31,078 nucleotides of DNA from a virus (IMGVR_UViG_2713896898_000008:1-31078), one strand, 5' to 3'; shown: positions 1 to 17,987, numbered from the stretch's first letter. Translations and numbers: made by a program. Notes: generated from the letters alone by a model not told the origin.

Positions 1-153
1 ATGAAAAACATTGCAGCTATCAAACGTAATAACCGCAAGATTCACGCTCGTAAGTTCCTGTCTACGCCAGAAGGAAAAGCCTGGCTAGAGCGTAAACAGC
101 GAGAGAACGAAGAAAGAAAACTCCTTAGTGAGTTGAAATGGCTTAAGGATTGA
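1..153 (+). CDS. hypothetical small basic protein (50 aa)
   Basis: ATG at 1, TGA at 151-153; below the ORF-track size cutoff; Lys/Arg-rich; no family recognised. Confidence 0.25.
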   Translation: MKNIAAIKRNNRKIHARKFLSTPEGKAWLERKQRENEERKLLSELKWLKD

Positions 154-718
154 ACCACCAGTAGGCGCATAACACATCCAGCGATCAAAGATGTGTTTAT
201 GCACCTGATAGTGAAATTATTAAAGTCGTTTAGTTAACATCGCCATTGCTTGAGCAATAATTGCAACAGCGTCCATCTCTTCACTGGAAGCGATGCAAAT
301 GCGGTAACTAATAGCCACAACGAATACATCAATAACGAGAAAGTGAATAGTGTGAAGATGTTTTGAAAGTAAATGCATAACTTCCTCCGGTTTTACGATA
401 GGAAGATTAGAACATGCATTAAATGATGTTACAAGGGTGGTAATTTACCCTAATAGTCTACTATTCACCTCAATCTACGTCAACCAATATTTGATGTAGA
501 TTTAATTTTCTTTTAAAAACAATGTGTTGCAATTTGTTGAATTTTGGGGTTAGGTTGTTTTTTGAACGTTTTCATCAAGTGTAAAGATACGTTTAGCCTT
601 CATAGTGAGTTCAGTTACTGTCTTTTTCTCTGAAATCGGCGCAGACGTGATCAATGTTTAACGCGAAGATCAGCGGCGTCAGGCCCACGCAGCGACAATT
701 CTCAAATATCAGGAGGCA

Positions 719-1276
719 TTACGCTTCCTGCTCTTTCTTGATACGTTGCACCGTCTGTGTGCTGACACTGAAATCTTTTGCTACGCTCCGAATTGATCCA
801 CCATTCGCGAGAGCGGCAACAATTCCCGCTCGATCAATTGCTTTTCCATTACCACGTTTTGCTATACGTCCAGCGGCCTTAGCTGCGGCGATCCCCTCAC
901 GCTGCCGCTCAAGCATCATTTCACGTTCCATTTGTGCCACTGCTGCAAGCACTGTGAGCATCATATTCCCTGCGGGAGAGTTCTTCCCTGTCTTAAAGTC
1001 TTCTTTATGGAAATGCACAGACACGCCGCGCTCTGTTAATTGCTCAACCGTTGCCAGAAGGTCGGCTGTATTACGACAAAGGCGATCAATACTATGGACG
1101 TGTAACACGTCACCCTCCCGCACATAGTTCATCATTGCCTCAAACTGTGGGCGCTGAGTGTTCTTGCCTGACGCTTTATCTTCAAAGACTTTATCAAGAG
1201 TTACTCCAGCTAATTGACGGTCTGTGTTTTGTTGCACAGTCGATACCCTAATGTATCCAATATTAGCCATTTTCAT
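719..1276 (-). CDS. small serine recombinase (resolvase / DNA invertase family)
   Basis: 185 aa; N-terminal IGYIRVSTVQQNTDRQ catalytic-serine motif and C-terminal HTH typical of Hin/Gin/TnpR family; likely true start is the internal ATG at 1270 (MANIGYIRV). Confidence 0.85.
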   Translation of the reverse strand: MKMANIGYIRVSTVQQNTDRQLAGVTLDKVFEDKASGKNTQRPQFEAMMNYVREGDVLHVHSIDRLCRNTADLLATVEQLTERGVSVHFHKEDFKTGKNSPAGNMMLTVLAAVAQMEREMMLERQREGIAAAKAAGRIAKRGNGKAIDRAGIVAALANGGSIRSVAKDFSVSTQTVQRIKKEQEA

Positions 1277-1834
1277 TTTCCTTCTGTGTTGATTTGTGTG
1301 TAGTGATTATTGATCGTGTTGATTAGGTGTGTAAAGGACTTTTTTCACTACGAAATTCGAAGGTTTTTAGTGTGGTGATTTAGCCTGCTTTATCACTACA
1401 CGTCTTGCATGAGAATCATGTAGTTACATTTTGGTAAAATTAGCAAGCTATTAAATAGTGTGTTTATTTTGAAAAAATAATTTTTTGTTGCATTAAAGGA
1501 AACTTGTTCGACAAATAATAGATTGATTTTTAATCAACAATTTCTGATAGTGCTCTGTAAGCCGTATTACACAAGGCTTTGCGAAAGTGATGTAAAAGTG
1601 AAGAAAGCTAACATTGCACTTTTTAAGCTACTTTTCATTGGATTTTTACGTAGGAATTACACAGGGATTAATCATCAATTACATTGAATTTAAGCCTGTT
1701 TTAGATGTTTAATTTTGGTAGCAAGAAACACTTTTAGAAGATCATTGCACAGATGCTATGTGATGATTGGATGTAACGGTAGGTCACTGTGAGCTACCCC
1801 TATCAAGTCTGATACCCGATAAGTATAAATAACA

Positions 1835-1933
1835 CCTGGGAAATGAGTTCCGATCTATTTAGGAAATAACCGTGGAAGTGGTTTCCTACCTACCTAGGAA
1901 ATGAGTTCCTATCACCTAGGAAATGATTTCCGA
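1835..1933. repeat. three direct copies of a ~18-bp unit CCT(A/G)GGAAATGA(G/T)TTCC (1835-1853, 1893-1910, 1915-1933) plus a partial copy near 1860
   Basis: read directly; each unit contains inverted half-sites GGAA..TTCC; followed by a very AT-rich tract 1934-2003. Confidence 0.75.
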
Positions 1934-2003
1934 CAATACTATAATTAAACTACAATTAAACTATATAATATAATTCTTTTTTATCTTTATAAGAATAATT
2001 ATA

Positions 2004-2036
2004 GGGATACCCGTTAGGGAGTCTAACGGGTATCCC
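2004..2036. repeat. perfect 14-bp inverted repeat GGGATACCCGTTAG-(5 nt)-CTAACGGGTATCCC
   Basis: read directly; embedded in AT-rich DNA; protein-binding site or hairpin. Confidence 0.8.
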
Positions 2037-2945
2037 TTAATCTATTGGCATTCGCCAGAACCTTGCACAAGTTAGAGTGTTAGTCGTTAGACTGCTTGTC
2101 ATAACACATAGTTTTTGTTTGTTGATGTTAGTTAGTAGATCTATGTTCGCTAATGCCGCTCACAACGAATATGTAATCTACTATGTGCAAATAGCCTACG
2201 GCTTGCGTAAGGCTAAATAGTCTTGCGCTGTGCGCTTCAATAGTTCCATTGATGAGGCTTACGCCAATCTAACGATCATCAATCTATTTAAGAGAAAATC
2301 TATTGTGCAATACTCTGACGAGTGCAATAACCTTGTGTGCTACGCGTTAGCGATGTTAGCACATAGACACAGACAACAACCAACAACAAACAAAAAAGAA
2401 AGAATGGTTTTAGTAGTTGAAGGTTAAATAAGTTTCTACCGCTTAAATCAAGCCGTAGGCGAGCTAAACGTATATAAGGCAGGGAAACCTTAGCGGTAAT
2501 AGATTAGCTCATTATAGAGCTTCTGAGGAGCTTTACAGGTATTTTATAAGGTGTCTGAAATTAGAGTTTATCTATCATCTCCTTTTCATATACCTAACAA
2601 ATACAAAATAAGCCCCTTAAATAAACCTCTGGCGAGCTAAACTGTCATTACATAAGGGAATGTATTGTTTTTATCAAAACCTCGTTAGAACGCGTTTTAG
2701 AGAATAAGGAAGAATAGCATCACACAGAAGAGCACGAATTGCTAAGCAAAATCATAACATACTGAAAAATGATCAATATTTTATGGGCGGGGGTTGACAA
2801 AAGCCTTTAGTTATGGTAAAGTAATATTAGGGACAGGAAAACATTCCTATCCTCTAAATAATTAAACCAATGCACCGCACTTTGAAGCCCAAGAGGCTTG
2901 CAAGGTGTCTTTTTCTTTTAACCAAATAGAATAGGAGGTTAATTA

Positions 2946-3128
2946 GTGAAGTATTTCACTTCTCAAGATGTAGTTGAAGCCTGGAAACGTGGTGAGATCA
3001 ACCGCTTTAGGGTAAGAATGAATAGGAACACAGCGCGACGCTGTGGTTATCCAGAGCGTGAAAAATGTTTTGACGATGCACTAAAAATTATTGATGAACT
3101 GCGTAAGGCAGGAGCAGAGAAAGAATAA
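2946..3128 (+). CDS. hypothetical protein (60 aa)
   Basis: GTG start preceded by strong SD (ataggagg); first gene of a same-strand small-gene cluster. Confidence 0.45.
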   Translation: MKYFTSQDVVEAWKRGEINRFRVRMNRNTARRCGYPEREKCFDDALKIIDELRKAGAEKE

Positions 3129-3151
3129 TAACAGGAGAAGGAGAAAACCAA

Positions 3152-3340
3152 ATGAATATTAATTTTGATTCTGCAACTTATAACGCGTTGTTAAATCGTG
3201 CAAAGGCAGAAGGGAAATCAATTCCAAAACTTGTTAATGAATTACTAATTACAGTCCTTACAAAGGAGGAACTAAATGATCAAAAATATCAAAACAATTG
3301 CCGAAGCGAAAGCCAAATGTCTAAATCAGAAAGATGGTAA
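3152..3340 (+). CDS. putative ribbon-helix-helix (CopG/Arc-like) DNA-binding protein
   Basis: 62 aa; N-terminal beta-strand then helix pattern (NINFDSATYNALLNRAKAEGKSIPKLVNELL); SD ggagaaggag upstream; 3' end overlaps the next gene. Confidence 0.45.
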   Translation: MNINFDSATYNALLNRAKAEGKSIPKLVNELLITVLTKEELNDQKYQNNCRSESQMSKSERW

Positions 3341-3944
3341 ACAAAAATATGTAGTCGTTGAGCAGTGGTTGAAGATGTTTAAAAAGTGGTTCTCACCGTC
3401 AGGTAATGAATACACCGCTACACTGCCAGCCGTTGAAATCTATAGCTATATAGCTGGATTCAATGAACAAGGGCAAGAATGTTACGCCACTCAAAAAACA
3501 TTATCTAATATTGGAATGGTTAGTGATCGCCAGGTTCGCAATATTATAAATATGTTTGTTGATATGGGAGTTCTTTCTGTAGAGGCTCGGGACGGGCAAA
3601 CATCACTCTATAAAGCATTACCATTCACAGATGCACATATTACTCCCCCTGGAGAGTCATCACTACCTGATCCTTCTGAGAAAGAAGACGAATCTAATGA
3701 AATATTGAATGTTTCCGAAATCATCGTTGAAGAAGAAACACAAGAGCCAGAGTTCCCTGAGCGGCCCGAAATTTTTACTTGGCTTCTTTCCCTTGATAAG
3801 AAGAAACCACCGCACGAAGAAACAGAAGATTTTGTAAAACGAGCATTAGATTCAAAGAATATCTATCTTTGTGAAAATGATTTTGACTCTTTGATAATTG
3901 ATCTCAAAAGTGAGAGCACAATATATGATTCACTACCCTTCTAA
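3276..3944 (+). CDS. winged-helix DNA-binding protein with acidic C-terminal region (regulator or replication initiator-like)
   Basis: 222 aa; strong SD aaggagg 7 nt before ATG; HTH-like segment ATQKTLSNIGMVSDRQVRNIINMFVDMGVL resembling the N-terminal DNA-binding domains of phage/plasmid initiators. Confidence 0.5.
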   Translation: MIKNIKTIAEAKAKCLNQKDGKQKYVVVEQWLKMFKKWFSPSGNEYTATLPAVEIYSYIAGFNEQGQECYATQKTLSNIGMVSDRQVRNIINMFVDMGVLSVEARDGQTSLYKALPFTDAHITPPGESSLPDPSEKEDESNEILNVSEIIVEEETQEPEFPERPEIFTWLLSLDKKKPPHEETEDFVKRALDSKNIYLCENDFDSLIIDLKSESTIYDSLPF

Positions 3945-3953
3945 GGAGAATAA

Positions 3954-4223
3954 ATGACTTATAACATCACTATAGGAAACAAAACTATTGAAATAACTGA
4001 AAGCGGATACAACATTTTAAAAGCTATTTTGGACATAGAGTTTTCACCACCGACAGTGGTTAGCTTTTGTAGTTTAGGCGGCTACAGCGCACAACACGTA
4101 AATCATTGGTTAAATCATTTTACATCGTTCGGTGTGCTGGATTATGAAGGGATTAACAGCACTACATTTCGTCTTTTGAAATTAAACAAAGATTTTGAAT
4201 TGTTTCTCACAAACAATCAATAA
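3954..4223 (+). CDS. hypothetical protein (89 aa)
   Basis: ORF with SD aaggag upstream; same-strand operon context. Confidence 0.4.
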   Translation: MTYNITIGNKTIEITESGYNILKAILDIEFSPPTVVSFCSLGGYSAQHVNHWLNHFTSFGVLDYEGINSTTFRLLKLNKDFELFLTNNQ

Positions 4224-4320
4224 CAACAGATCGGGCAATACATATGGCAAATGCATTTATGGCGATATTCATCGTAACAATGGCGTCCAGTTTTTATAAT
4301 CCACATAAAAAGAGGGAAAA

Positions 4321-4704
4321 ATGGGAAGAAAGAAAAAGAACAACTTAAAACGTATTGAAAAAAACAGTAATTTCAATTCAAAAAGACAACGTCCACCGAC
4401 ACACACCAATAACGAAATTCCAGGGGAAGAGATAATCTTTATTCTTGAAACAGAATCCCCTGAATTAAGTGATGAAGAATTAGAAATAATCCAATCAATG
4501 CCAGGCGTTTACTTTCGCCCAAGAACAAGAAAACAAACTATCATTTCTGATGGCACTCTGAAACGTTGGCAGCTTTTAGGGTTTAGCTCCTATCATCATT
4601 TTTTGGGATTTAACGCTTTCAATAATTGTGTAGGTGGTGCATCGGAAGTCGATCTGATGGCTCATTTAGAAGATACATTAGCTTCTAACAAACGTTCTAA
4701 CTAA
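4321..4704 (+). CDS. hypothetical protein with lysine-rich N-terminus (127 aa)
   Basis: ORF preceded by aaagaggg SD-like sequence; AT-rich codon usage consistent with neighbours. Confidence 0.4.
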   Translation: MGRKKKNNLKRIEKNSNFNSKRQRPPTHTNNEIPGEEIIFILETESPELSDEELEIIQSMPGVYFRPRTRKQTIISDGTLKRWQLLGFSSYHHFLGFNAFNNCVGGASEVDLMAHLEDTLASNKRSN

Positions 4705-4719
4705 TAAAATGATGGGTGT

Positions 4720-4965
4720 ATGTATAAGCGCCCAATGAAAATATTCAAAAAAGGAAAAATAATGATTGGCTATATTCAAGAAACACAATTATTTCAGATG
4801 ATCCTGTCTGATGCAAAAAACTATGCAGAGTTAATTCGGCTGGCAAAAGAAACAGAAGACTACGAAGCATTAGAGCGTTACCGTGATGAAGTGCTGACGC
4901 TCAAGACACCTTTTAACATCGTATTGAATATGATTAATGATGCATTACAAGGAGAATACGCATAA
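4720..4965 (+). CDS. hypothetical protein (81 aa; alternative start at internal ATG 4762)
   Basis: ORF in same-strand cluster; stop overlaps next start (ATAATGG). Confidence 0.4.
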   Translation: MYKRPMKIFKKGKIMIGYIQETQLFQMILSDAKNYAELIRLAKETEDYEALERYRDEVLTLKTPFNIVLNMINDALQGEYA

Positions 4966-5264
4966 TGGAAGAAGATATTAGCAATGCAATGGAACAACTT
5001 TTAGATCTGACTATCTCACTACAAACAAGAATAAATCAAGCCTATTCAGATTTATGCGATTACACGCTCTCTCAATGCGTTATTAGCTTAATGAAGGTGA
5101 ATGTAAGCCTTGACGATTTTATCTCTCTGGTGAGCGTATCAGAGGACGATGCAAAACAGTGTAATCAAATCATCACAGACATCGCCACCACGTTAAAGGT
5201 TGCAAGTGAAGAGATTCAGCAATTAGTAGATGATTTAGCAAAAAGTGCTATTTTCTCTAAATGA
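4965..5264 (+). CDS. hypothetical acidic protein (99 aa)
   Basis: ORF translationally coupled to upstream gene. Confidence 0.4.
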   Translation: MEEDISNAMEQLLDLTISLQTRINQAYSDLCDYTLSQCVISLMKVNVSLDDFISLVSVSEDDAKQCNQIITDIATTLKVASEEIQQLVDDLAKSAIFSK

Positions 5265-6248
5265 TAATGAAAATTATTTGCATTTATAATGATTTTGTTA
5301 TATAATAATTTTAGGGGTAGATAAAAAGATTTTAGTTGGTGTTAATCCTTCTACTGTCATAAATCCCTGCATATGGAAGGTGATAGCCTCAAAGGTTGAG
5401 TGGCATTAACCTCTAACAAATATTACCTTCCATCTCTCAAGAAGTTTTAGAATAATCATAACTCCCTCTTTGATTGTTGATTGTTTCTACGTTGTGTTGA
5501 TGAATGTTGTTAGGCATTGTGCTTAATTTTGATAAAAGCGGGTAGGTGTTATCTCCTTGCCCTTCCCGCTCTTATTTTTCATCTATGCTTATCCTAAAGC
5601 TCCTTATTTTGTCAGAAAACATTAAAGAGCCTTACACTGATAGTTATATTTTATAACTATTTACTAACATCATTAAACTATTATTTAATGACAGAAGTTA
5701 GTAACAGAATAATCTATTAAGTTGTTGTCAAAAACAATCATCTGCATAGCGTTAGCCGCAAGCAGAGAGAGTTTAGCTAAGAATGGTGCAATAAACTTTG
5801 GAAATATTGATAGCAAAACGGGTTTTATAGAATGCGGATCTATAAGCTTTGGTTGTAAAAACGATTTTCTGAAACGGTAGATTACTGTTGGTGTAGTTAA
5901 TCATTATTAAAAATTTAATCTGTGAGTAGATTGGAATAGTGATTCCTTAAAATCTGACTGGTGCATCCACACCATGAAAGATAGCGGTTGGCCACCGCGC
6001 CCCGAATAGATATTCCTGATTGATTCCGCATGTTTTCCTAAGAGCATGTTTTCAGGAGTATCTATTCACCCTTTAAGCATATCATCAAGTATATTTAAAA
6101 AGTGTATTTGCTGATATGTTTAATCCTCTTATAGTTTAACTTATCAATTATGTAATTGCCCGCACGTTAAAGCCCCTTTGCTGGTCAGAATTAACCTCTT
6201 ACGGCATTGGGGCTTTTTATTTGTCTGGCACTAACAGGAACATTATTT

Positions 6249-6446
6249 ATGAAACAAGAAATGATTATCAGCAAAGACGGGGAAACGATGATTGTTAGTG
6301 ATGAAAACCTCATTAAGGTTGCCGCACTGTTGGGAGTTACTCCCGAAAGTCTTCGTTCTACCACTGCTCAATTATTTAAATCGGCTGATGCGGTTAGTCT
6401 TGCTGATGCCCTTAAATCTAAAATTAAACAACTGAAAGGAAAATAA
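6249..6446 (+). CDS. hypothetical small protein (ORF-track 6207..6446; internal ATG 6249 preferred)
   Basis: first gene of a tight five-gene plus-strand operon. Confidence 0.35.
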   Translation: MKQEMIISKDGETMIVSDENLIKVAALLGVTPESLRSTTAQLFKSADAVSLADALKSKIKQLKGK

Positions 6447-6450
6447 TCTT

Positions 6451-6834
6451 ATGGCTAACCCATATGGAAAATTAAAAGCAGTGAATGCGGATAACTCCCG
6501 TTCACGCTGTAAGGTAGTAGCTTACGCTGCTGATCCAGTGCTGCAAGATCGCCTCGTCAAACTGGCTTCACCTCTCACTGACGATCTTATTGTCGGGGCT
6601 TTGCTGAAAGCCGATGGCACCAAAGCAACAACCGCATCTGATATTGCTCACGTAGTAGTTGAACCGGCTTATGAAGGACAGGAAAGCGTAGTGGTTGCAC
6701 ATCCTACTTTCGTTATTCTGGCTGAAGATGGGATTGAATTTAACAGCATGGAAAAGGCAAGTGTTATTGCAAAACTGCAATCTCTCGGCTTTGTAATTGC
6801 TGGTTATGAAGAACTTGCGATCCCTACGACTTAA
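6451..6834 (+). CDS. hypothetical protein (127 aa), possibly virion-associated
   Basis: 4-bp spacing from upstream gene; SD aaaggaaaa; sits immediately before a capsid-like 343-aa gene. Confidence 0.45.
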   Translation: MANPYGKLKAVNADNSRSRCKVVAYAADPVLQDRLVKLASPLTDDLIVGALLKADGTKATTASDIAHVVVEPAYEGQESVVVAHPTFVILAEDGIEFNSMEKASVIAKLQSLGFVIAGYEELAIPTT

Positions 6835-6848
6835 CAAGGAAAATAATA

Positions 6849-7880
6849 ATGAATGATTTATCAACATATTTTGGCGTTAATACTGCGGTAGTAACTCCAT
6901 TTGCTTATGAGAATGCACTTAATACCCTGATTACTAATCTCGATCTGTTCGATGTGCAATATCATACAGAAAACAGCATTCTTCTTACCGACCTGATTGA
7001 TCAGTTTGTGCAGGTAGCTGGGGAAACCTCGCCTTACGCTCAAAGCGACTGGAACGCCTCTAAACGTCAGGAATGGTCAAACAAACTTTTCCAGATGAAA
7101 CACGTCGGCAGTATTAACGCTGTTACTTCTCGTGACCTGGAACAATACAGCCGCCAATATCCAAACCGTTCTGATGCTATGCTGGTAGCGGTTAATGATT
7201 TCTCTGAGGCTCATTACCGTTCACACGCAAACCGTGTTGAAGTGGATCTGATTACCGCGCTGCTGGGCCTGAAAGTTGAATCTGAATATGCCGGACAAGG
7301 TGATCTCGACTTCCTCGACGGTCAGGCTAAAACCACGGTACCCGCTATCGACTTTGCATCGACTACTGTTAACCCGTTCCTTGCTATTCGTAAAGCGGTG
7401 CGCTTACAGAGTGAAAAGCTGGGGTCTGGTCTTGCTGCAAAGCGAACTGGTGTAATTATCTTTGCTGCTGGCACTGCTGCTGATGGTTTGTCATCTAACC
7501 CGCTGATCAGTGACATGGTGAAATATGCAGGCGATGCGAGTGCTACGGCCCTGTTTACCCGTATGGTTGATTCTAACCCAGCCTATGACTCTTTCCAGAT
7601 TGGTGGGATCACTGTTATTGATGTGTCAATGTTTCCTGAGATTGTTGCTCACATCGGAGAGAACGGTTTCGCAATTGTTCCGGTAATGGATAAAGCGGCA
7701 CAGTGTTACCAGCTTCATAGCGGCGTTGGTGTGCGTCATGCTGAGTTAGGTCAAGATGCCGTGTTGCATCACCAATATCTAATCAAGGATGAATTCCAAT
7801 TCCCATCTGTGGTTACTGAGACATCTTATCTGCCAGTAAACAACATTCCGCAAGCTATCATCTTCGGATCTGCTGCGTAA
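6849..7880 (+). CDS. hypothetical protein (343 aa), composition reminiscent of a major capsid/coat protein
   Basis: SD aaggaaaa upstream; Ala/Gly/Ser/Thr/Val-rich with no TM segments or enzymatic motifs; functional assignment is inference only. Confidence 0.5.
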   Translation: MNDLSTYFGVNTAVVTPFAYENALNTLITNLDLFDVQYHTENSILLTDLIDQFVQVAGETSPYAQSDWNASKRQEWSNKLFQMKHVGSINAVTSRDLEQYSRQYPNRSDAMLVAVNDFSEAHYRSHANRVEVDLITALLGLKVESEYAGQGDLDFLDGQAKTTVPAIDFASTTVNPFLAIRKAVRLQSEKLGSGLAAKRTGVIIFAAGTAADGLSSNPLISDMVKYAGDASATALFTRMVDSNPAYDSFQIGGITVIDVSMFPEIVAHIGENGFAIVPVMDKAAQCYQLHSGVGVRHAELGQDAVLHHQYLIKDEFQFPSVVTETSYLPVNNIPQAIIFGSAA

Positions 7881-8031
7881 TAAAGCGTTAATAGACGATT
7901 CCCCATCGGGGCAATAAGGGTAAAGGGATTAACTAACCTGTAGGCGCAAATACAGTAACGAATCTCTTTGCCCTTTTTGTTTTTCTACTGTCTACAAACC
8001 CAAATAAAAATATATATGTGAGAGAAAACCA

Positions 8032-8229
8032 ATGAATACAGAAAACCCACAATCCTTTATTCTTAAGGCTGTAAAAGAACTGGCAGCTATTAGCGAGGAA
8101 TCAGTTATAAACACATCGGCGCTTTGCCGCCTTTTAGAAATTGATGCAAATAATGTGCGCCAGCGTGTCTTTCAGACTGGGTGCAGCACTTTCGAAGCAA
8201 TTCAATACTATTGCTCTAAAAAACAATAA
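8032..8229 (+). CDS. hypothetical small protein (65 aa)
   Basis: ORF within operon. Confidence 0.35.
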   Translation: MNTENPQSFILKAVKELAAISEESVINTSALCRLLEIDANNVRQRVFQTGCSTFEAIQYYCSKKQ

Positions 8230-8263
8230 TAAACAACAATCATAATACAGGGAAACAATTAGC

Positions 8264-10105
8264 ATGTTAGAACTTAACGTCAGCCGCTTATCAAACGTTG
8301 TCACCTTCCAGGTTGATCGACCATCATTAGAGAAAGCAAAAGCAGAAGTAGAAAAACTTCGTAAACAAATGGCGGCGGTGAAAGATATAGAATTGCGTGT
8401 TAAGACACATAAACAATCAACTTCTAAAGCAAAAAAAGACGTAGACGATATTGCTAAAAAGCAAGCACAGGCAGATAAAGCCAATGCTAAAGCACAATTA
8501 GCCGCTCAACGTGTAGTTGCAAGAGAACAAAAAGCCCTGGCAGCACGCAAAGAGAAGGCAGACTTAAAACTGTTAGACGTTGGATCAAGCATTAGTGCAT
8601 TGCACCGCCTTTCTGTAGCGGAACAATATAAAGCTATTGCACAGGCTAGAGAAATTGCCCTCCAATATGAAAGAGGAGCTATTAGTCTGGCACGTATGAA
8701 TAGCCAAATGAAACGCCTACAACAGCAACAACGTAAGATTAATGGCAATCGTAACGCTCACGCTAAAGCCTATGCACCTGTTAAGGGTAGCGGGAGTATT
8801 GGCGGCGGTGCTGCGGCTGTTATGCTGGGTGGCTTAGGCGCTGGCGCTACGTATATGGCTATGAGCAAAGCCTCTGAATTTGTTACTAACAGCTTTGCGA
8901 ATGCTGAAACGCTGGGTGAATTGTATAGCCGTGCGAAGCTGGGCGGTGTAGACGTTAACCAGATGAACAATATTGAGCAATGGGCCTACAAAAACGGCGT
9001 TGATTCAATGATGGGGGATCAAGGTAAACGTAAGTATCTCGATCAGATGAAAGATGTGCGTGAGCGTGCAACCAAAAGCTATGATGAGGCTGAATATGTA
9101 GTCGATAAAAAAACAGGCAAAGGTGAATGGAAGGGCGGCGATAGCGGCATCAATACTTTAATGAATGAAGGATTCTTAACTAAAAAGGATCTAAAAGACT
9201 TTGCTGATAATCCGGCTGGTCTGGTTAGTAAAGCAGTTCAGGGAATGGTGAAGAAAGGCTATTCAGATGCACAAATCGGTAGTCGTCTGGAAGATCTGGC
9301 TGATGATTTGATGCTCACCTCTAAATACTGGACACGCTCCGCTAAAGAAGTGGAACAATCAGCACGAGAACAACGAGAATCAGGGCGCTGGGTAACACAG
9401 GCACAACAGGAAAGCGTTATTAAATTCCGTGAACTGAATAATGCACTTAGTGGGCTTTCTGACTCACAAGGGATCGCCTTTGTTGATGGCTTTATGAAAT
9501 CTCTTGATCCGAAAGTGATTGAAGAGTTTAAAAAGAGCATGGTTGCAATGCTGCCAATGTTTACCAAATTAGGCGAGGCTATCGGCGGATTGGTTAACGC
9601 CGTAATGAAAACAATCAACTGGCTGATGAAAAACGACGAGAAGACGGAAGCTATTCAGAAGAATTTAGGGGATGCACCGCCACTATCTAACGAAGGAATG
9701 AAGCAGAATCTTTCTAATCTCACTCCTGATCAATATAAAGGCGCTGGCACCGGAACAACTAAGCCAGATAACAGCAATTCCCTGGTTAACACTATTAAAA
9801 GCTGGTTTATGCCAGAAGAAACGGTAGGTGGGGCGCAGGCTGTAAATCAATACAGTCTCGAAGGACAAAACATTGCAAATCTGAAACAGAGTGCAGCACA
9901 ACAAGCTTTCAAGGCTCCTTCTTACACCTTTGCACCTGTTATTAACTTCAATCCAGAATTACAAGTAAATGCAGAAGTGCCGCTAACTATCGAATCAGAC
10001 ACCGGACGATTGAGCGAATTTATCGACTTCAAATCAAAGGCATCCTCCGCTGAGTTTAGCAAGCTATTAACGCTGGGTGTTATGTCAGGCGGGTCAACCT
10101 ATTAA
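8264..10105 (+). CDS. hypothetical 613-aa protein with long N-terminal coiled coil and Gly-rich hydrophobic segment (tape-measure / ejection / TolA-like architecture)
   Basis: residues ~20-180 are Lys/Ala/Glu/Gln-rich heptad-like; GSGSIGGGAAAVMLGGLGAGATYMAMS hydrophobic stretch; function inferred from architecture only. Confidence 0.5.
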   Translation: MLELNVSRLSNVVTFQVDRPSLEKAKAEVEKLRKQMAAVKDIELRVKTHKQSTSKAKKDVDDIAKKQAQADKANAKAQLAAQRVVAREQKALAARKEKADLKLLDVGSSISALHRLSVAEQYKAIAQAREIALQYERGAISLARMNSQMKRLQQQQRKINGNRNAHAKAYAPVKGSGSIGGGAAAVMLGGLGAGATYMAMSKASEFVTNSFANAETLGELYSRAKLGGVDVNQMNNIEQWAYKNGVDSMMGDQGKRKYLDQMKDVRERATKSYDEAEYVVDKKTGKGEWKGGDSGINTLMNEGFLTKKDLKDFADNPAGLVSKAVQGMVKKGYSDAQIGSRLEDLADDLMLTSKYWTRSAKEVEQSAREQRESGRWVTQAQQESVIKFRELNNALSGLSDSQGIAFVDGFMKSLDPKVIEEFKKSMVAMLPMFTKLGEAIGGLVNAVMKTINWLMKNDEKTEAIQKNLGDAPPLSNEGMKQNLSNLTPDQYKGAGTGTTKPDNSNSLVNTIKSWFMPEETVGGAQAVNQYSLEGQNIANLKQSAAQQAFKAPSYTFAPVINFNPELQVNAEVPLTIESDTGRLSEFIDFKSKASSAEFSKLLTLGVMSGGSTY

Positions 10106-10152
10106 TCATCACTGTGGGGCTGTTTAGCCCCCTTAAATAAGGATTACAAATT

Positions 10153-10830
10153 ATGGCAATGGGTCCGTTAACCATTGGTCGCCCGACTGAGGCGAAAATC
10201 AACAGCACAAGCAACGATAGCAACGGTAGAACAACCAAAGGGGGTAACGGCTTTGCGATCATTACCTCTAATCTCGGCAGTGGTGCAAATGCTGCTTACA
10301 ATGACTACCAGGCATTATCATTTGATAGCGTGGAATCGACGAAAGTTAGCAGAAATGCGGACGTTACAAGCTATGCCGTCGAATCAGGATCAGAAGTTAG
10401 TGATCATGTTCAAATACGGAATAACAAGTTCACATTACAAGGGCGTATCTCTGAAACCGTATTGAAGCTCAATCCTGATATGATTAAGAATGCTGGAATT
10501 AACGGCAATCGACGTATGCTTATGCTTGAATACCTAAATCAGTTGATGGACAGTCGCCAACCTTTCCTACTTGTCACTGAGTTAAAAAATTATGACAACG
10601 TTGTGTTAGTTGGCATGTCTTACGAAGAAGAAGCAAGCGAAAGCCTATTGTTTACTCTTGATTTTGAGCAAATCCGTCTTGTCTCTAAAGCAACTACAAG
10701 CGCAATTGCGGTAAAAACAGCACCAAATAAATCTGTAGGAGGCCAGGTTAAAATGCAGGTAAATACAACAGAACAGAAAAATCAAAAAAGCCCAGGGCAA
10801 GACGTTGTAACGCCAGTATTTAAACAATAG
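10153..10830 (+). CDS. hypothetical protein (225 aa)
   Basis: last gene of operon; followed by hairpin 10872-10903. Confidence 0.45.
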   Translation: MAMGPLTIGRPTEAKINSTSNDSNGRTTKGGNGFAIITSNLGSGANAAYNDYQALSFDSVESTKVSRNADVTSYAVESGSEVSDHVQIRNNKFTLQGRISETVLKLNPDMIKNAGINGNRRMLMLEYLNQLMDSRQPFLLVTELKNYDNVVLVGMSYEEEASESLLFTLDFEQIRLVSKATTSAIAVKTAPNKSVGGQVKMQVNTTEQKNQKSPGQDVVTPVFKQ

Positions 10831-10871
10831 CCTTAAACGCCTATGAAACGCTCTGTAACGAGATAATCATA

Positions 10872-10903
10872 AAAGAGGCATCAGTCTATATTGAAGCCTC
10901 TTT
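10872..10903. terminator. bidirectional stem-loop between convergent genes
   Basis: AAAGAGGC...GCCTCTTT stem; T-rich tract on both strands (TTTATTA on plus, TTTTATGATTAT on minus). Confidence 0.5.
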
Positions 10904-10910
10904 ATTACGT

Positions 10911-12188
10911 CTATAGCGTTGTTTTACGCCTTAAATTTGATTTTTTATTGATTGATAAGCCTTTCTCTATTTCAGGGTAGCGTAAAAGCTCAATATATTT
11001 TTTAAGCTCTATTGGAGAAGCTGCATTTTTGCTATATGTGCGGAATGTTTCTGTATTGCCGCGTGTATGGCCCAGGAGAAGGGCGATCCTGTCTTCTGGA
11101 ATTTGATTTCGATCAAGAAGCTGTGCTACTCCGTGTCTCAGAGAATGAAACACTTTCCTTTCTGTTCCCTTTTCCCCTAAAGCCTTTCGTTTAGCTCTTG
11201 TAAATCGTTGTGTATGCCACGTAGAGCGTTTACCGTCAGCACGTTCTGTAATGCTGGCGTGATAGAACAAAAAGCCATTGTGAGGCTTTTCACGCAGCGA
11301 CAACACCAACGGAGTGATAAGGTTATGCACAGGCACAACACGTGCCGCAGCTTTCGTCTTTCCCTGTGTGATTTCAAAACACAGCACACCTTCGATCTCT
11401 TTCACATCGTCTATTGTGAGACTTGCTATCTCATTGATCCGCATACCTGTATATAAACCGATAAGACACAAAGCCGTCATTTCTTTGTTTTCTGCTGAAT
11501 TACCGGAAAATACTTGCAACACCTGCAATAGCTCTTTGTTAGAAAATGCCTCGTAGCTCTCTCTACTTTGTGCCACATCAAGCCTATGCCCTCGCCAGGG
11601 GGAGAGCGCCCTTTCTGGCGCATCGTGGTAACGTGATGAAGCTAATTCCCATAGCTGGGCCATTGGACTGATATAATTTGCAATTGATTGTTGTGAAAGA
11701 GTTTTTTGCATGTGTTCAATCCAGCCTGTAACAGTGGTGCGGCTTACATCTTGCAATGCAATATCAGGCTTTTTACGGTAGGAGAGAAACATCTCTACCG
11801 CTTTTCTTGCCTTAGCTAAAGTGGCTGGCTTCTTCTTCGTGCTGTTAATTGTCAGGTAGATTTCAAGAATTTTAAGCAATGACGGACACGAAGACGCTGT
11901 ATCTTGCACTCTGGTAGCTGTTTTGGCGTATTTAGCCTTACTGCGTAACAGTTCCAGCGTGTTTTCTATTGTGCTGTTTACAGGGGCAACACTCTCCCGT
12001 AAGCAATGGTATTCATCTGCAATCTGATCACGCTTTCTACGTGCAACACGAAGATTACTTGTGTGTAGACTTCTGACAAACGTCCTTTTTCCTTCAAAAA
12101 AGGGCTGCATATACACAGGCAGCGTGATCCTTAAATAGTAGTTACCGTAAGAATCACAGATTAAGTATTGGTTAGGCTTGTATCTCAT
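10911..12188 (-). CDS. tyrosine recombinase / phage-type integrase (second integrase; ORF-track 10911..12275 begins at TTG)
   Basis: C-terminal catalytic signature HSLRHGVAQ ... LLGHT ... TYSK (R-H-R-Y family); preferred start ATG 12188 has SD GGAG 6 nt upstream. Confidence 0.8.
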   Translation of the reverse strand: MRYKPNQYLICDSYGNYYLRITLPVYMQPFFEGKRTFVRSLHTSNLRVARRKRDQIADEYHCLRESVAPVNSTIENTLELLRSKAKYAKTATRVQDTASSCPSLLKILEIYLTINSTKKKPATLAKARKAVEMFLSYRKKPDIALQDVSRTTVTGWIEHMQKTLSQQSIANYISPMAQLWELASSRYHDAPERALSPWRGHRLDVAQSRESYEAFSNKELLQVLQVFSGNSAENKEMTALCLIGLYTGMRINEIASLTIDDVKEIEGVLCFEITQGKTKAAARVVPVHNLITPLVLSLREKPHNGFLFYHASITERADGKRSTWHTQRFTRAKRKALGEKGTERKVFHSLRHGVAQLLDRNQIPEDRIALLLGHTRGNTETFRTYSKNAASPIELKKYIELLRYPEIEKGLSINKKSNLRRKTTL

Positions 12189-12363
12189 AAAATCTCCGGC
12201 TAAAGTGTCGGAGCGTTTGTAATGTGAAAATTGATTGTGACGCATAGAAAATGATGATTTTTCTATAAGATTCAATCAATTAGTAATGGTCGTAGGTGAT
12301 GGCATTAACACGAGATTAATCGAGTGTTTTACTCCTATTATCGGCACCATTTAAATCAATAAG

Positions 12364-13524
12364 TTATCTCACATTTAAGTAAACCACGTTTTCCTCTTGT
12401 GCCGTATTTGTGCCATTGCGACTTATAATCGCATCGATTTTGCTCGCGTGCTCAGTGAGATGCCCGGCTGAAAGGTGGGCGTATCTTTGAACCATTTCGA
12501 GAGTTTCCCATCCTCCCATCTCTTTAAGTGCAAGAAGAGAGACACCGGACTGAACCAGCCAGCTTGCCCAGGTATGCCTCAGGTCATGGAAGCGGAAGTT
12601 GCTAATGCCTGCCCGCTTTAACGCTCCCTTCCATGCCTTGTTGCTGTCGGTTCTCATCTTCCTTACCGCTGCTGTTTTTGTTCCGTCGTTTCGGTAGGCA
12701 GGTTTGGTGTGGACAAATACCCATCTCTTATGGAGCCCCTGCTGTTTTCTTAATATCTGGCATGCGGTTTCGTTAAGAGGAACTCCGATCGCATTGCCGG
12801 CTTTTGTTTCATCAGGGGGCATCCATGCCATTTTCTTATCCAGATCGACCTGTGACCACTCAAGGTCTGTAACGTTGGAGCGGCGAAGACCTGTAGTGAT
12901 TGCGAACATGACCACAGGGAAGAAATGAGGAGCAATTTCTGCAAACAGGCGCTTCGATTCCTCCTCTGTAAGCCATCTGATTCGTCCATTCTTAACGCGT
13001 GGTGTTGATATTTTTGGCGCCCTGTCAAGCCATCCCCATTCAACAGCCATATTGAGAATAGCGCGAAGTATTGCCAGATGCCGCATCTTCGTTCCTTTGC
13101 TTGCCAGCTTTGGTTTATACTCCGGCACTGGCTTGCCAAGCCGCAAACACCTGTCCCGGCTCATCTCCCAGTTCAGGCGATGGCGGCGGTTTTCCATCCC
13201 GTCTACCGCCTCCATTATTTTTTCTGTTGTTATGTCAGAGAGAATGGTTTCTCTGAAGTGCAACATCCAGAACGATATAATGCTCTTGTCATCATCAATG
13301 GACTTCTTATCCGATTTCTCACGCAGCCACCGTATGCAGGCTTCCTTGAATAGCTTTTTCGGTGATTCCCCGAGATTTTTTACTCTCCACGCTTCTGCTT
13401 TCAGACGATCGTGAAGTTCTTGCGCTTGCCTTTTGTCCGATGTTTCAAGAGAGCGTCTAACTCTTGATCCATCTGGCGCGACGAAATCGCAGTGCCACGT
13501 GCCACCGCGTAGTTTGATTGACAT
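12364..13524 (-). CDS. int: lambdoid phage integrase (tyrosine recombinase)
   Basis: 386 aa; catalytic motifs TGLRRSN, FHDLRHTWAS, VQRYAHL; strong SD AGGAGG; immediately downstream of an excisionase and Red operon as in lambda, but sequence is not lambda Int. Confidence 0.9.
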   Translation of the reverse strand: MSIKLRGGTWHCDFVAPDGSRVRRSLETSDKRQAQELHDRLKAEAWRVKNLGESPKKLFKEACIRWLREKSDKKSIDDDKSIISFWMLHFRETILSDITTEKIMEAVDGMENRRHRLNWEMSRDRCLRLGKPVPEYKPKLASKGTKMRHLAILRAILNMAVEWGWLDRAPKISTPRVKNGRIRWLTEEESKRLFAEIAPHFFPVVMFAITTGLRRSNVTDLEWSQVDLDKKMAWMPPDETKAGNAIGVPLNETACQILRKQQGLHKRWVFVHTKPAYRNDGTKTAAVRKMRTDSNKAWKGALKRAGISNFRFHDLRHTWASWLVQSGVSLLALKEMGGWETLEMVQRYAHLSAGHLTEHASKIDAIISRNGTNTAQEENVVYLNVR

Positions 13525-13748
13525 GCTTTAACCTCCTGCATATCAACCGCATTCACCGCGCTATTGTGTCTCACAGACTTAAGCGCCGCAATGCAGTCTG
13601 ACTTGCAAATGCGATATGGGCTTTTAGGTTTATCTGGATTTATCTTTGCGGCCTGAAGTCGTCCACTTCGTATCCACTGCGTGATAGTGCCTTTGTCTAC
13701 CTTCAGATACGATGCTGCCTCTTCACGAGTGAAGATTTCTTCTTCCAC
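13401..13748 (-). CDS. xis: excisionase-like HTH protein
   Basis: N-terminal FTREEAASYLKVDKGTITQWIRSGRL HTH typical of Xis/AlpA family; positioned directly upstream of int (overlaps int start by ~40 codons, so C-terminal extent uncertain). Confidence 0.6.
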   Translation of the reverse strand: MEEEIFTREEAASYLKVDKGTITQWIRSGRLQAAKINPDKPKSPYRICKSDCIAALKSVRHNSAVNAVDMQEVKACQSNYAVARGTAISSRQMDQELDALLKHRTKGKRKNFTIV

Positions 13749-13817
13749 TTGGAATCTCCATTTATTGAGTTGGTATTATTGCGGTAGGTCTGGATATCAT
13801 TGAGAAATGAACAGGCC

Positions 13818-14096
13818 TCATCGAGTGTGAGGCTGTGTGATTCCATGGTTACCTCTGTTTTTTGAGCGCATGGAACGTAACTTCTTAATGTGTTCTGCCG
13901 TTTCGATCTCTTCTGCTATCCGATCTGCATCAGCTTTATTCACAGGTTCAAAGTCATGATTAAAGCGGAACATGCTGGCGATACATGTTCTGCCTTTTCG
14001 GATGTAGTGAACTTTGTTGTGGGTAGAACGCAGGATTTTGCAGGGAGTGCCGTGGTGGTCGACGTACCAGGTGTTAGGAAAAATGATTCTGAACAT
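13818..14096 (-). CDS. hypothetical early-left-operon protein (92 aa)
   Basis: ORF in the exo-xis accessory region. Confidence 0.4.
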   Translation of the reverse strand: MFRIIFPNTWYVDHHGTPCKILRSTHNKVHYIRKGRTCIASMFRFNHDFEPVNKADADRIAEEIETAEHIKKLRSMRSKNRGNHGITQPHTR

Positions 14097-14143
14097 TTTT
14101 ACACCTCAGTTGGACGATGTTGAAATTTGCTGCTTTGAGGCCA

Positions 14144-14362
14144 TCACAATCCCCATTGTTTGTTCTTAAGTTCGATCTCCTCCTGGCAACTTGCACAAGT
14201 CCGACAACCCTGAACGGCCAGGCGTCTTCGTTCATCTATGGGGTCGCCACACTCACAACAATGAGTGGCAGATATAGCCTGGTGGTTCAGACGACGCATT
14301 TTTATTGCTGTATTGCGCTGTAATTCTTCGATTTCTGATGCTGAATCAATGATGTCTGCCAT
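14144..14362 (-). CDS. TraR/DksA-family C4 zinc-finger protein
   Basis: 72 aa; CxxC...CxxC (CCECGDPIDERRRLAVQGCRTCASCQ) characteristic of phage TraR-like proteins. Confidence 0.65.
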   Translation of the reverse strand: MADIIDSASEIEELQRNTAIKMRRLNHQAISATHCCECGDPIDERRRLAVQGCRTCASCQEEIELKNKQWGL

Positions 14363-14460
14363 CCTCCATTAATCCCTGAATTGTTGGTTAATACGCTTGA
14401 GGGTGAATGCGAATAATAAAAAAGGAGCCTGTAGCTCCCTGATGATTTTGCTTTTCATGT

Positions 14461-14679
14461 TCATCGCTCCTTAAAGACGCCGTTTAACATGCCGATCGCC
14501 AGGCTTAAATGAGTCGGTGTGAATCCCATCAGCGTTACCGTTTCGCGGTGCTTCTTCAGTACGCTACGGCAAATGTCATCGACGTTTTTATCCGGAAACT
14601 GCTGTCTGGCTTTTTTGATTTCAGAATTAGCCTGACGGGCAATGCTGCGAAGGGCGTTTTCCTGCTGAGGTGTCATTGA
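14461..14679 (-). CDS. hypothetical protein (72 aa; ORF-track 14461..14775 trimmed to internal ATG MTPQQ)
   Basis: upstream part of the track ORF overlaps the Dam gene, so the internal start is preferred. Confidence 0.35.
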   Translation of the reverse strand, partial: SMTPQQENALRSIARQANSEIKKARQQFPDKNVDDICRSVLKKHRETVTLMGFTPTHLSLAIGMLNGVFKER

Positions 14680-14752
14680 ACAAGTCCCATGTCGGCAAGC
14701 ATAAGCACACAGAATATGAAGCCCGCTGCCAGAAAAATGCATTCCGTGGTTG

Positions 14753-15310
14753 TCATGCAGCCTCCCGACGGGCAAGAATCCTTGAGCCGAACGCCATCAA
14801 CTCTCCACGATCAACGGTCGTAAAGTGGCAGTGTGTACGGGGGTATGGGTGCCAGATAATGAGCATCGAGCCTTTATTATTTCCACTGACGGGTTTCCCG
14901 GTGAGTGGGTTAATAAATGCCAGTCGTCCTGCCGTGATGAATCTGACCTCACTGGCGGTTTGTATCGCTTCATGAAACCATCCGACAGATGTGTCAGCAG
15001 GCAATAACATTACACATCCCACACTACTGAATTTGTTTTCAGTGGCTGCCTTTTTCACAAAAGGGGAAATATTGCTGTATGGTGGATTCAACCAGACATA
15101 ACCAGAGGCACATCCCATTGCTTCAGGCCATGAAGTGGTTAATGTGTTCTGCTCCTGTGAGATAAAAAGCCGACATAGTCGGTTTTTTTCGCTGGCGGCA
15201 GCATCAAGTTGAAAAACGAACTCTGCATTAAGCGCAGCAAAAATCTCTGGTGGTGTGCGCCAGCTGTCGCGATGTTCGGCAGGAGTATTGCTTCCGGTGA
15301 AATCAGTCAT
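14753..15310 (-). CDS. phage DNA N6-adenine methyltransferase (Dam-like)
   Basis: 185 aa; WRTPPEIF N-terminus and NPPY catalytic motif (WLNPPYS) typical of phage Dam methylases. Confidence 0.8.
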   Translation of the reverse strand: MTDFTGSNTPAEHRDSWRTPPEIFAALNAEFVFQLDAAASEKNRLCRLFISQEQNTLTTSWPEAMGCASGYVWLNPPYSNISPFVKKAATENKFSSVGCVMLLPADTSVGWFHEAIQTASEVRFITAGRLAFINPLTGKPVSGNNKGSMLIIWHPYPRTHCHFTTVDRGELMAFGSRILARREAA

Positions 15311-15464
15311 ACAGCCCCCGTTTATTATTTATCACCTCAGCTAGCCGCTGTGCTTTCAGTGGATTTCGGATAACAGAAAGGCCGGGAAATACCCAGCCTT
15401 GCTTTGTAACGGAGTAGACGAAAGTTATCGCGCCTACCCGGATATTATCGTGAGGATGCTTCAT
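15303..15464 (-). CDS. hypothetical small protein (53 aa) coupled between exo and the Dam gene
   Basis: ATG overlaps exo stop; its TGA overlaps the Dam ATG (ATGACTGA); not in ORF track (size cutoff). Confidence 0.3.
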
Positions 15465-16141
15465 CGCCATTGCTCCCCAAATACAAAACCAATTTCAGCC
15501 AGTGCCTCGTCCATTTTTTCGATGAACTCCGGCACCATCTCGTCAAAACTCGTCATGTACTTTTCATCCCGCTCAACCACGACATAATGCAGTCCTTCAC
15601 GTTTCATACGCGGGTCATAGTTGGCAAAGTACCAGGCATCTTTTCGTGTCACCCACATGCTGTACTGCACCTGGGCCATGTAAGCCGACTTTATGGCCTC
15701 GAAACCACCGAGCCGGAACTTCATGAAATCCCGGGAGGTAAACGGGCATTTCAGCTCAAGGCCGTTGCCGTCACTGCATAAACCATCGGGAGAGCAGGCG
15801 GTGCGCATACTTTCGTCGTGATAGATGATCGGGGATTCAGTAACATTCACGCCGGAAGTAAACTCAAACAGGGCTCTGGCGTCGTTCTCGTACTGTTTTC
15901 CCCAGGCCAGTGCTTTAGCGTTAACTTCCGGAGCCACACCGGTGCAAACCTCGGCAAGCAGGGTGTGGAAGTAGGACATTTTCATGTCAGGCCACTTCTT
16001 TCCGGAGCGGGGTTTTGCTATCACGTTGTGAACTTCTGAAGCGGTGATGACGCCGAGCCGTAATTTGTGCCACGCATCATCCCCCTGTTCGACAGCTCTC
16101 ACATCGATCCCGGTACGCTGCTGGATAATGTCCGGTGTCAT
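15461..16141 (-). CDS. exo: lambda exonuclease (Red alpha)
   Basis: 226 aa, near-identical to my recollection of lambda Exo ([35 protein letters not shown]...FVFGEQWR). Confidence 0.95.
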
Positions 16142-16923: not shown

Positions 16924-16928
16924 TCGTT

Positions 16929-17225
16929 TTATACCTCTGAATCAATATCAACCTGGTGGTGAGCAATGGTTTCAACCATGTACCGGATGTGTTCTGCCAT
17001 GCGCTCCTGAAACTCAACATCGTCATCAAACGCACGGGTAATGGCTTTTTTGCTGGCCCCGTGGCGTTGCAAATGATCGATGCATAGCGATTCAAACAGG
17101 TGCTGGGGCAGGCCTTTTTCCATGTCGTCTGCCAGTTCTGCCTCTTTCTCTTCACGGGCGATCTGCTGGTAGTGACGCGCCCAGCTCTGAGCCTCAAGAC
17201 GATCCTGAATGTAATAAGCGTTCAT
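16929..17225 (-). CDS. gam: Gam, RecBCD inhibitor (short GamS form)
   Basis: 98 aa [21 protein letters not shown]...[10 protein letters not shown] matches lambda Gam C-terminal 98 residues. Confidence 0.9.
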
Positions 17226-17980: not shown

Positions 17981-17987
17981 AGCATCA

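Follow-up and report, generated by a model that had tools for sequence, protein, structure and literature searches.

What are six compactly arranged, virion-like genes doing beside an integrase and outside the core of the lambdoid prophage with which they share a stretch of viral DNA? The stretch, IMGVR_UViG_2713896898_000008:1-31078, is 31,078 nt long; we call the whole of it the window, and coordinates given without another label are counted from its first letter. An earlier, sequence-only reading took the genes either for the structural set of a small satellite-like element that forms capsids and is linked to the integrase beside it or for a new envelope or defense-related system. Our analysis indicates that the block is probably the morphogenetic module of an integrated island that parasitizes, as a satellite, the Stephanstirmvirinae, a subfamily of large virulent myoviruses used in phage therapy. 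The block and the hairpin that follows it are laid out as follows.

6249-6446, plus strand: A65, 65 aa from an ATG, the first gene of the operon, possibly a helix-turn-helix (HTH) protein
6451-6834, plus strand: predicted gpD/SHP-like cement (decoration) protein, 127 aa
6849-7880, plus strand: major capsid protein (gpE family, HK97 fold), 343 aa
8032-8229, plus strand: D65, a small HTH-like protein encoded between the head and tail genes, 65 aa
8264-10105, plus strand: tape measure protein, 613 aa
10153-10830, plus strand: Dit-like tail-tube initiator or baseplate protein, 225 aa
10872-10903, unstranded: terminator-like hairpin between the operon and a convergent integrase

The six open reading frames (ORFs) are real genes under purifying selection. 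Ratios of nonsynonymous to synonymous substitution (dN/dS), computed against a diverged E. coli copy (locus L007), are 0.09-0.27 across all six (0.19 for A65 and 0.27 for D65), and because orthologues are also kept in more than 10 genera, the six are more than chance ORFs. RefSeq/PGAP calls the same genes in 140 complete E. coli genomes, labeling five of them 'hypothetical' and one 'phage baseplate protein'. The sequence-only reading had described a five-gene operon, a count that we correct to six, and its start at 6207 corresponds to a TTG-extended, 79-aa version of A65. Its account of tightly spaced plus-strand genes of 65, 127, 343, 65, 613, and 225 aa with Shine-Dalgarno (SD) sequences agrees with the ORF coordinates, with intergenic gaps of 4, 14, 151, 34, and 47 nt, and with an SD-like motif (AAGGA, AGGGA, or GAGAG) 5' of every ATG. 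The ~0.9-kb noncoding gap that it placed 5' of the block is there too: positions 5265-6248 (~0.98 kb) contain no annotated gene, no Rfam match, and no DNA match to any phage, and a promoter scan of the gap found fewer promoter-like sites than the shuffled mean. An Rfam search of window positions 1-12400 also returned nothing. Regarding the bidirectional terminator that had been proposed at the 3' end, the hairpin at 10872-10903 is present (stem AAAGAGGC / GCCTCTTT, dG -16.9 kcal/mol), comparable on both strands, and flanked by A and T runs, but its T-tract is weak, and a simple terminator scan did not pick it up because the extended stem-loop is unlike the short-loop pattern of the scan. Termination in both directions is, therefore, plausible rather than proven.

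The 343-aa product is the major capsid protein; it has the HK97 fold and is of the gpE family. Establishing its homology required profiles and a fold search because a tblastn comparison with phages gave no match. It is one of a small family of enterobacterial proteins, of which 9 of 14 match Pfam PF03864 (major capsid protein E; best match, 1.6e-8), with the window's own copy scoring below detection. Although its AlphaFold model is of modest quality (pLDDT 58.5, pTM 0.59), Foldseek gave 18 matches at E<=0.001, every one of them to an HK97-fold phage coat protein, with the coats of PhiTE (E 1.5e-9), ICP1, Bas63, and Sf14 in the lead. Identity to the Phapecoctavirus major capsid protein is 25% (E 6e-5). 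The sequence-only reading had noted a capsid-like composition in this protein, and structure prediction followed by Foldseek now supplies the coat fold.

Directly upstream, in the place that the decoration gene takes in Phapecoctavirus, lies the 127-aa gene, the product of which is predicted from its fold to be a gpD/SHP-like capsid cement protein. Its AF2 model is confident (pLDDT 82.9), and Foldseek ranks the PhiTE, Bas63, and Sf14 decoration proteins first (E 2e-5 to 4e-4), ahead of phage 21 SHP and lambda gpD. The cement-protein family comprises 159 clusters, and all source names among those listed read 'hypothetical protein'. PDB sequence searches with the coat- and cement-family profiles yielded one marginal capsid match (E 0.02) and otherwise noise.

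Two further proteins point to a phage tail. The 613-aa protein begins with ~165 charged, coiled-coil-like residues, followed by GSGSIGGGAAAVMLGGLGAGATYMAM. It matches the PHROG tape measure family phrog_16051 (3.4e-34) and aligns from its N to its C terminus with the tape measure of the Phapecoctavirus-type phage vB_Eco_J-01 (28% identity, E 4e-29); we identify it, on these matches, as a tape measure protein. The coiled coil and tape measure-like architecture seen in the sequence-only reading is thereby borne out, while no support was found for a TolA-like envelope protein, its other suggestion. Nearly all of the 134 phage records that match the protein are 130-150 kb genomes of the Phapecoctavirus/Justusliebigvirus group, and the closest phage relatives are strictly virulent myoviruses of ~145-151 kb. 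Records named 'Campylobacter phage' A150, A145, C3, and A110a (~146 kb), together with one 'Acinetobacter phage', match in the same way as E. coli phapecoctaviruses, and the host labels of these records may be unreliable.

The 225-aa protein matches Pfam Dit_like (PF21821) at 1.2e-27 and shares 49-53% identity with the product of the gene that follows the tape measure gene in phapecoctaviruses, with short nucleotide matches of 80-85%; we identify it as a Dit-like tail protein. None of the six proteins had been recognized in the sequence-only reading, yet the tape measure and Dit-like proteins both match standard profile libraries. Both 65-aa products probably bind DNA and are not parts of the virion. 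D65 is from a family that keeps an HTH-like motif in different genera, and sub-threshold Pfam HTH matches occur at residues ~22-47 in six of the nine members scanned; A65 has an orthologue in L007 and only a faint HTH_3 match. More generally, the small HTH proteins of the island show HTH_17-type matches that are sub-threshold only. A role for D65 as a tail assembly chaperone was considered and rejected, as it is HTH-like and has no similarity to the protein encoded ahead of the phage tape measure.

The order of these genes is informative. In the phages, the decoration and coat genes are followed by ten neck, sheath, tube, and chaperone genes, a small gene, the tape measure gene, and the Dit-like gene. 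The island keeps the order of this Phapecoctavirus structural module with its middle, the neck, sheath, and tube genes, removed. Pfam and PHROG scans of all island ORFs detected no portal, terminase, protease, scaffold, sheath, tube, neck, or lysis gene.

To which element does the block belong? It lies in an island of 12,955 bp with its own integrase, bounded by 28-nt direct repeats of the thrW 3' end (attL and attR). Other features of the island, in order, are these.

633-715, plus strand: look-alike of the Phapecoctavirus direct terminal repeat (DTR) boundary, a candidate packaging or cleavage site
719-1276, minus strand: Hin/Gin-type serine invertase, 185 aa (Pfam Resolvase 1.1e-38; phrog_125 DNA invertase 2.3e-62)
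1834-1935, plus strand: three 22-nt palindromic iterons, ACCTGGGAAATGAGTTCCGATC, a candidate origin or operator
3152-3340, plus strand: orf62, encoding a small regulator-like protein (weak PHROG 'transcriptional regulator' match)
3276-3944, plus strand: HTH222, a Rep-like putative DNA-binding protein of 222 aa with a variable N-terminal winged HTH domain and a conserved C-terminal domain
4321-4704, plus strand: orf127a, a conserved core gene of the island family (tblastn, 30-50% identity in most island loci of other genera)
10911-12275, minus strand: island tyrosine integrase, DUF6538 plus Phage_integrase (425 aa according to PGAP, ending at window ~12188)
12326-12353, plus strand: attR, the 28-nt thrW 3' end repeat, which closes the island on the right and served the lambdoid prophage as its integration site

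A lambdoid prophage with a thrW-type integrase fills positions 12364-31078, its integrase region matching mEp043/HK542-type phages that use the thrW attachment site. This prophage is integrated in tandem into the island's attR, which is why the window holds two independent elements at one tRNA site. In strain STEC1588, where no prophage is close by, tRNA-Thr (thrW) and yagP/paoD flank the block. The six-gene block, then, belongs to the att-bounded island and not to the lambdoid prophage, and the sequence-only reading was right to set it outside the lambdoid core. Its suggestion of a capsid-forming, satellite-like element tied to the adjacent integrase is likewise supported by the capsid and tail identities and by the shared att-bounded island, the particles themselves being what we infer. 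The island is carried by 140 of 5,426 complete E. coli genomes (~2.6%).

The synteny search that the sequence-only reading had proposed for the block recovers the same architecture in more than 10 enterobacterial genera. The common layout runs from a recombinase through an ORF-poor gap and small genes to a ~125-aa cement protein, a ~345-aa coat, a ~62-aa HTH protein, a ~615-aa tape measure, and a DUF6538-type integrase. It is found at other chromosomal sites in Klebsiella (tRNA-Gly) and in a second E. coli lineage, as well as in Citrobacter, Kluyvera, Raoultella, Phytobacter, Kosakonia, Buttiauxella, Scandinavium, and Yersinia. Across this range, coat identity is 29-56% (only 29% in Yersinia), and the reduced gene set and its order are kept throughout. 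In nearly every complete family locus, the tyrosine integrase sits directly beside the structural block; in L009, a 202-aa gene takes that position. Pfam and PHROG give no family match for orf127a.

Other parts of the island vary. The Dit-like gene occurs in only some family members and once elsewhere in the island, namely in L008, where it lies in the left module (6786-7424) and not 3' of the tape measure gene. That island variant is also flanked by a second, different integrase of the Arm-DNA-bind_3 type (L008 14773-16044), which suggests another tandem insertion. The serine invertase fills the far-left recombinase slot in E. coli, and in Klebsiella and Yersinia (L003 3835-4395; L028 4130-4678) that slot holds a tyrosine recombinase of only ~185 aa; in all three, an ORF-poor stretch of ~2 kb follows. 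An invertible switch beside the invertase was rejected, as no inversion was found among ten other E. coli copies compared and the inverted repeats there are weak. Relative to the E. coli loci L010-L018, window positions 1-6300 are strongly mosaic, with segments replaced or only 78-99% identical. The coat is 99-100% identical in all nine of these copies.

Evidence for the identity of the putative helper phages comes from the left half of the island, where a sensitive DNA search against phages gave three kinds of match, all of them to Stephanstirmvirinae. Window positions 633-711 are 80% identical to positions 150846-150926 of phage Mt1B1_P17, the record of which carries an exact 328-bp DTR and has its base 1 aligned to window position 660. 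Stephanstirmvirinae are reported to end in DTRs, with the BME3 repeat determined as 342 bp by PhageTerm, and the phi92 DTR is annotated as 343 bp. The Phapecoctavirus-type terminus element is present in all invertase-bearing E. coli islands examined; conversely, the invertase always accompanies this look-alike in the E. coli copies examined. Two other copies, L011 and L014, are without the element and have in the same slot a different one, which shows 93-97% identity to Justusliebigvirus genomes and spans the DTR boundary of phi92, annotated at 343. In a four-way alignment, the boxes GTGCTTAACGCGA and CAAATATCA are common to the island elements and both phage termini, and both termini begin at most 1 nt from AACGCGA. 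The ~40 nt between the boxes are genus specific, and each island type copies one version. We read the two look-alikes as alternative packaging or cleavage sites; by this comparison, the window's copy matches Phapecoctavirus and other copies match phi92-like Justusliebigvirus.

A second DNA tie is orf62, which is 98% identical at the nucleotide level to bas60_0101 of Justusliebigvirus PaulScherrer (Bas60). Within positions 3138-3304, this candidate gene for a small RHH-like regulator has 98% DNA identity to phage VEcB also. A search for island iterons in the phage genome found none, and a T4-type late promoter, TATAAATA, was dropped as a candidate since it was not enriched in the phage.

The remaining tie concerns DNA-binding specificity. 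HTH222 matches Pfam HTH_36 and, weakly, PHROG replication-initiator families, and its E. coli copies combine a common C-terminal domain with at least four N-terminal domains that are unrelated to one another. Each of the four N-domain types goes with palindromic iterons of its own, which lie ~1.3 kb upstream; in the window, the three iterons lie within an ORF-poor stretch of 1.7 kb. This covariation has the character of a Rep-origin (or repressor-operator) specificity module. Just 3' of the iterons, a near-perfect hairpin with 24-nt arms and a 5-nt loop (1994-2046) may be part of the origin.

Some phages encode nuclease fusions built from the same domains. Residues 30-122 of HTH222 are 88-89% identical to a domain of these fusions, and overall the phage domains are 88-100% identical to island domains. 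Protein QNJ49226 of Mt1B1_P17 (328 aa; L034 20722-21708) consists of a type C domain, a type A domain (88%), and a C-terminal endonuclease-family domain that matches phrog_681 'endonuclease' at 2.4e-18; its type C domain is 99% identical over residues 1-105, counted from the initiator Met. Gene 184 of phage inny (L038 1501-2604) encodes a type B domain (88%), a type A domain (89%), and the same nuclease domain, and an equivalent small gene lies directly upstream of it, as orf62 lies upstream of HTH222. Phage and island have DNA in common (355 bp at 98.6%; 625 bp at 95.4%), and a linker motif of the island protein is kept in the phage proteins, which suggests that the phages captured island segments. 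The fusion gene was found in only a few phages. We posit that these tandem-domain proteins are candidate antisatellite nucleases, analogous to Odn of phage ICP1. Odn is a T5orf172 nuclease with a domain 42% identical to RepA of PLE, the satellite of ICP1 in Vibrio cholerae; it cuts the PLE origin at the iterons, and PLEs escape it via replicon exchange.

How might the island work? Upon infection, it would excise by means of its own integrase, possibly aided by a small HTH protein, and would replicate from the iteron origin through the Rep-like HTH222. Expression of the operon would then supply the island's own coat and cement to build a shell on the helper's portal, scaffold, and protease, and since both shell proteins are the island's own, that shell is probably a small one suited to a 13-kb genome. 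The island tape measure and Dit-like ring might seed chimeric tails, to be completed by helper tube, sheath, baseplate, and fibers, as shown for PLE. Finally, the helper terminase might cut and package island DNA at the look-alike of the terminal-repeat boundary. Induction, excision, replication, capsid size, chimeric tails, packaging, and interference are what we infer. In our best reading, the island represents a new satellite family that would be mobilized much as PLE is and would also make its own capsid shell.

Several points weigh against this proposal. Excision, replication, particles, and transfer of the island are predicted from sequence. No excised or circular island was found among nine near-island-size metagenome contigs checked, all of which are chromosomal fragments without circular overlap, and the IMG/VR matches are prophage-region calls from isolate genomes, which are uninformative on packaging. 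The coat is only ~25% identical to that of the putative helper, and its fit to the helper portal and scaffold is therefore unproven; a relative not yet sequenced may be the true helper. At ~80 bp and 80% identity, the terminus look-alike is short, and it covers one edge of the repeat only. Also, HTH222 could be a repressor and not a replication initiator, and the nuclease domain of the phage fusions matches Pfam MUG113 (4.4e-4) and T5orf172 (0.037) below the curated cutoffs of both. Lastly, the Klebsiella island, the sole non-E. coli island tested, is without a DNA-level tie to sequenced phages, its only matches being to tRNA-Gly.

The defense alternative of the sequence-only reading is no true rival to a satellite, because satellites of this kind also defend. 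A rival would be an island that does nothing else: its diverged coat, cement, tape measure, and Dit-like proteins would serve as dominant-negative decoys to poison the assembly of infecting Stephanstirmvirinae, and these phages would neither package nor transfer the island. The structural proteins have indeed diverged from their homologues in the phages, there are precedents for mobile elements that interfere with tail assembly (Tai; Rta), and no excised or packaged form was detected in the contigs checked or among the prophage calls of IMG/VR. Moreover, the phages apparently carry a countermeasure directed at the island, and the island would, therefore, harm them. However, two genus-specific look-alikes of phage termini are hard to explain without packaging, and a Rep-iteron module with multiple specificities implies that the island replicates autonomously. 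The family also occupies different att sites in many genera, which argues that it transfers horizontally, and a PADLOC search of the island found no known defense family. We, therefore, consider a purely defensive island unlikely.

Much less probable still is a decaying remnant of a temperate phage that formerly had a full structural module, with the six genes as leftovers of no current role. The island does hold only part of a structural gene set, and it lies beside an integrase at a tRNA hotspot of cryptic prophages such as CP4-6. Set against this are the retention of one reduced gene set, in one order, from E. coli through Yersinia (coat identity 29-56%), the low dN/dS of all six genes, the intact att repeats and integrase, and nearest phage relatives that are strictly virulent myoviruses of ~145-151 kb. 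Conservation of one layout across genera appears to rule out random prophage decay. Hardly credible, finally, is the view that the block is cargo (a moron) of the lambdoid prophage next to it or else a TolA-like envelope system with no connection to phage particles: the block adjoins the lambdoid integrase and the 613-aa protein pairs a coiled coil with a Gly-rich hydrophobic segment, but the island has its own att sites, with attR between the two integrases, exists without the prophage in STEC1588, and encodes a 613-aa protein that aligns end to end with phage tape measures beside others with capsid and tail folds.

A satellite of virulent myoviruses invites comparison with known satellites, above all PLE. 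Phage satellites in general travel in particles derived from a helper and form no infectious particles on their own, and the structural gene set of the island is incomplete. The tape measure, the chaperone, and sometimes the baseplate hub of PLEs are 20-41% identical to those of ICP1 and are built into chimeric PLE virion tails. Deletion of the PLE tmp gene lowers transduction by 99.9%, and virion proteomics has shown tail-protein incorporation for PLE11. Like PLE, the island is an integrative element that appears, here from its sequence only, to target a large virulent myovirus, and it encodes its own tape measure and a baseplate or tube initiator (20% and 41% identical to helper proteins in PLE, 28% and 49% here). 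Both have a Rep-iteron replicon with exchangeable specificities (a putative one in the island), and in both cases phages encode a chimeric nuclease, predicted as such for the island, that bears the DNA-binding domain of the satellite Rep. The differences are substantial. The host is another one, and the libraries used detected no gene family common to the two; the core markers of PLE include RepA_N-type RepA, CapR, NixI, LidI, and TcaP, and no annotation of PLE type came out of Pfam, PHROG, or PADLOC for the island, with no direct comparison to PLE proteins made. The island encodes coat and cement proteins, whereas PLE uses the ICP1 coat with an external scaffold, TcaP. No tail assembly chaperone is recognized in the island, which is 13 kb long and has a tyrosine integrase at a tRNA gene.

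The nucleases, too, are alike in kind. As with Odn, the phage fusions are accessory proteins of only some isolates that join a putative nuclease of the GIY-YIG superfamily (T5orf172-like) to a satellite Rep domain. In contrast to Odn, the phage proteins stack two island-type domains of different specificities in tandem, and these are 88-100% identical to the island's, versus 42% for Odn; nuclease activity and target are predicted here.

The island also resembles capsid-forming PICIs (cf-PICIs), which are small enterobacterial islands with an integrase and an HK97-fold coat of their own that take all else from a helper. Putative tmp genes are reported in some cf-PICIs and Vibrio elements (Mathur et al.). 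We applied the cf-PICI definition of SatelliteFinder (de Sousa et al. 2023), which comprises a portal, a prohead protease, a head-tail adaptor and connector, TerS/TerL, and HNH, besides a major capsid protein and an integrase, and which forbids tail and holin genes. The island has its own major capsid protein and integrase. By Pfam and PHROG, it contains no portal, protease, adaptor or connectors, TerS/TerL, or HNH, and it carries tail genes, as evidenced by the phrog_16051 and PF21821 matches. Because it is without the capsid-assembly set and carries forbidden tail genes, the island is, by gene content, not a cf-PICI under this definition. Its putative helpers also differ, being virulent myoviruses of ~145-151 kb, whereas cf-PICI helpers are temperate siphoviruses. 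Neither AlpA nor a primase (pri-rep) family was matched in the island by Pfam or PHROG, and a Rep-like winged HTH protein with iterons is there instead. The P4-like core (Psu, Delta, Sid, Alpha primase, Epsilon, and AlpA) had no match in any island ORF in the same two libraries. Judged by these scans, the island is not P4-like and is probably not a PICI.

Capsid remodeling by satellites is carried out by an HK97 homologue (SaPIbov5 Ccm) or by capsid-binding proteins (P4 Psu and Sid). Both P4 and SaPIbov5 also carry a copy of their helper's cos packaging site. The island would resemble them in pairing satellite-encoded shell proteins with a copied helper packaging site. Its proteins have no sequence relationship to Ccm, Psu, or Sid, however, and here coat and cement genes occur together with tail-core genes, while the look-alike is a DTR boundary and not cos.

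A literature search on protein accessions, the locus, and phage taxa turned up no earlier account of the island (subscription-only papers fell outside its coverage). The combination of genes, coat and cement together with tape measure and tube initiator, would be new. On balance, we favor an ambitious version of the proposal: the island would be the first satellite family of large virulent coliphages, widespread in Enterobacterales, that builds a shell from no more than its own coat and cement, seeds chimeric tails with its own tape measure and tube initiator, and switches helper genus by swapping packaging look-alikes, to which phages would respond by stacking captured Rep domains on a nuclease.

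The pairing of PLE and ICP1 in V. cholerae has so far been the best-studied case of a satellite that preys on a virulent phage, remodels its tail, and meets a nuclease of borrowed specificity in reply. If our reading is true, a comparable system exists in E. coli and its relatives, and conflicts of the PLE-ICP1 type would be general. The E. coli system would also be tractable, owing to standard strains and phages (the BASEL phages, phi92, and phAPEC8-like phages). Phapecoctaviruses and justusliebigviruses are common choices for phage therapy and biocontrol, and an island present in ~2.6% of complete E. coli genomes may block these phages or be spread by them. Moreover, the tandem-domain phage nucleases would exemplify the modular evolution of DNA-targeting specificity.

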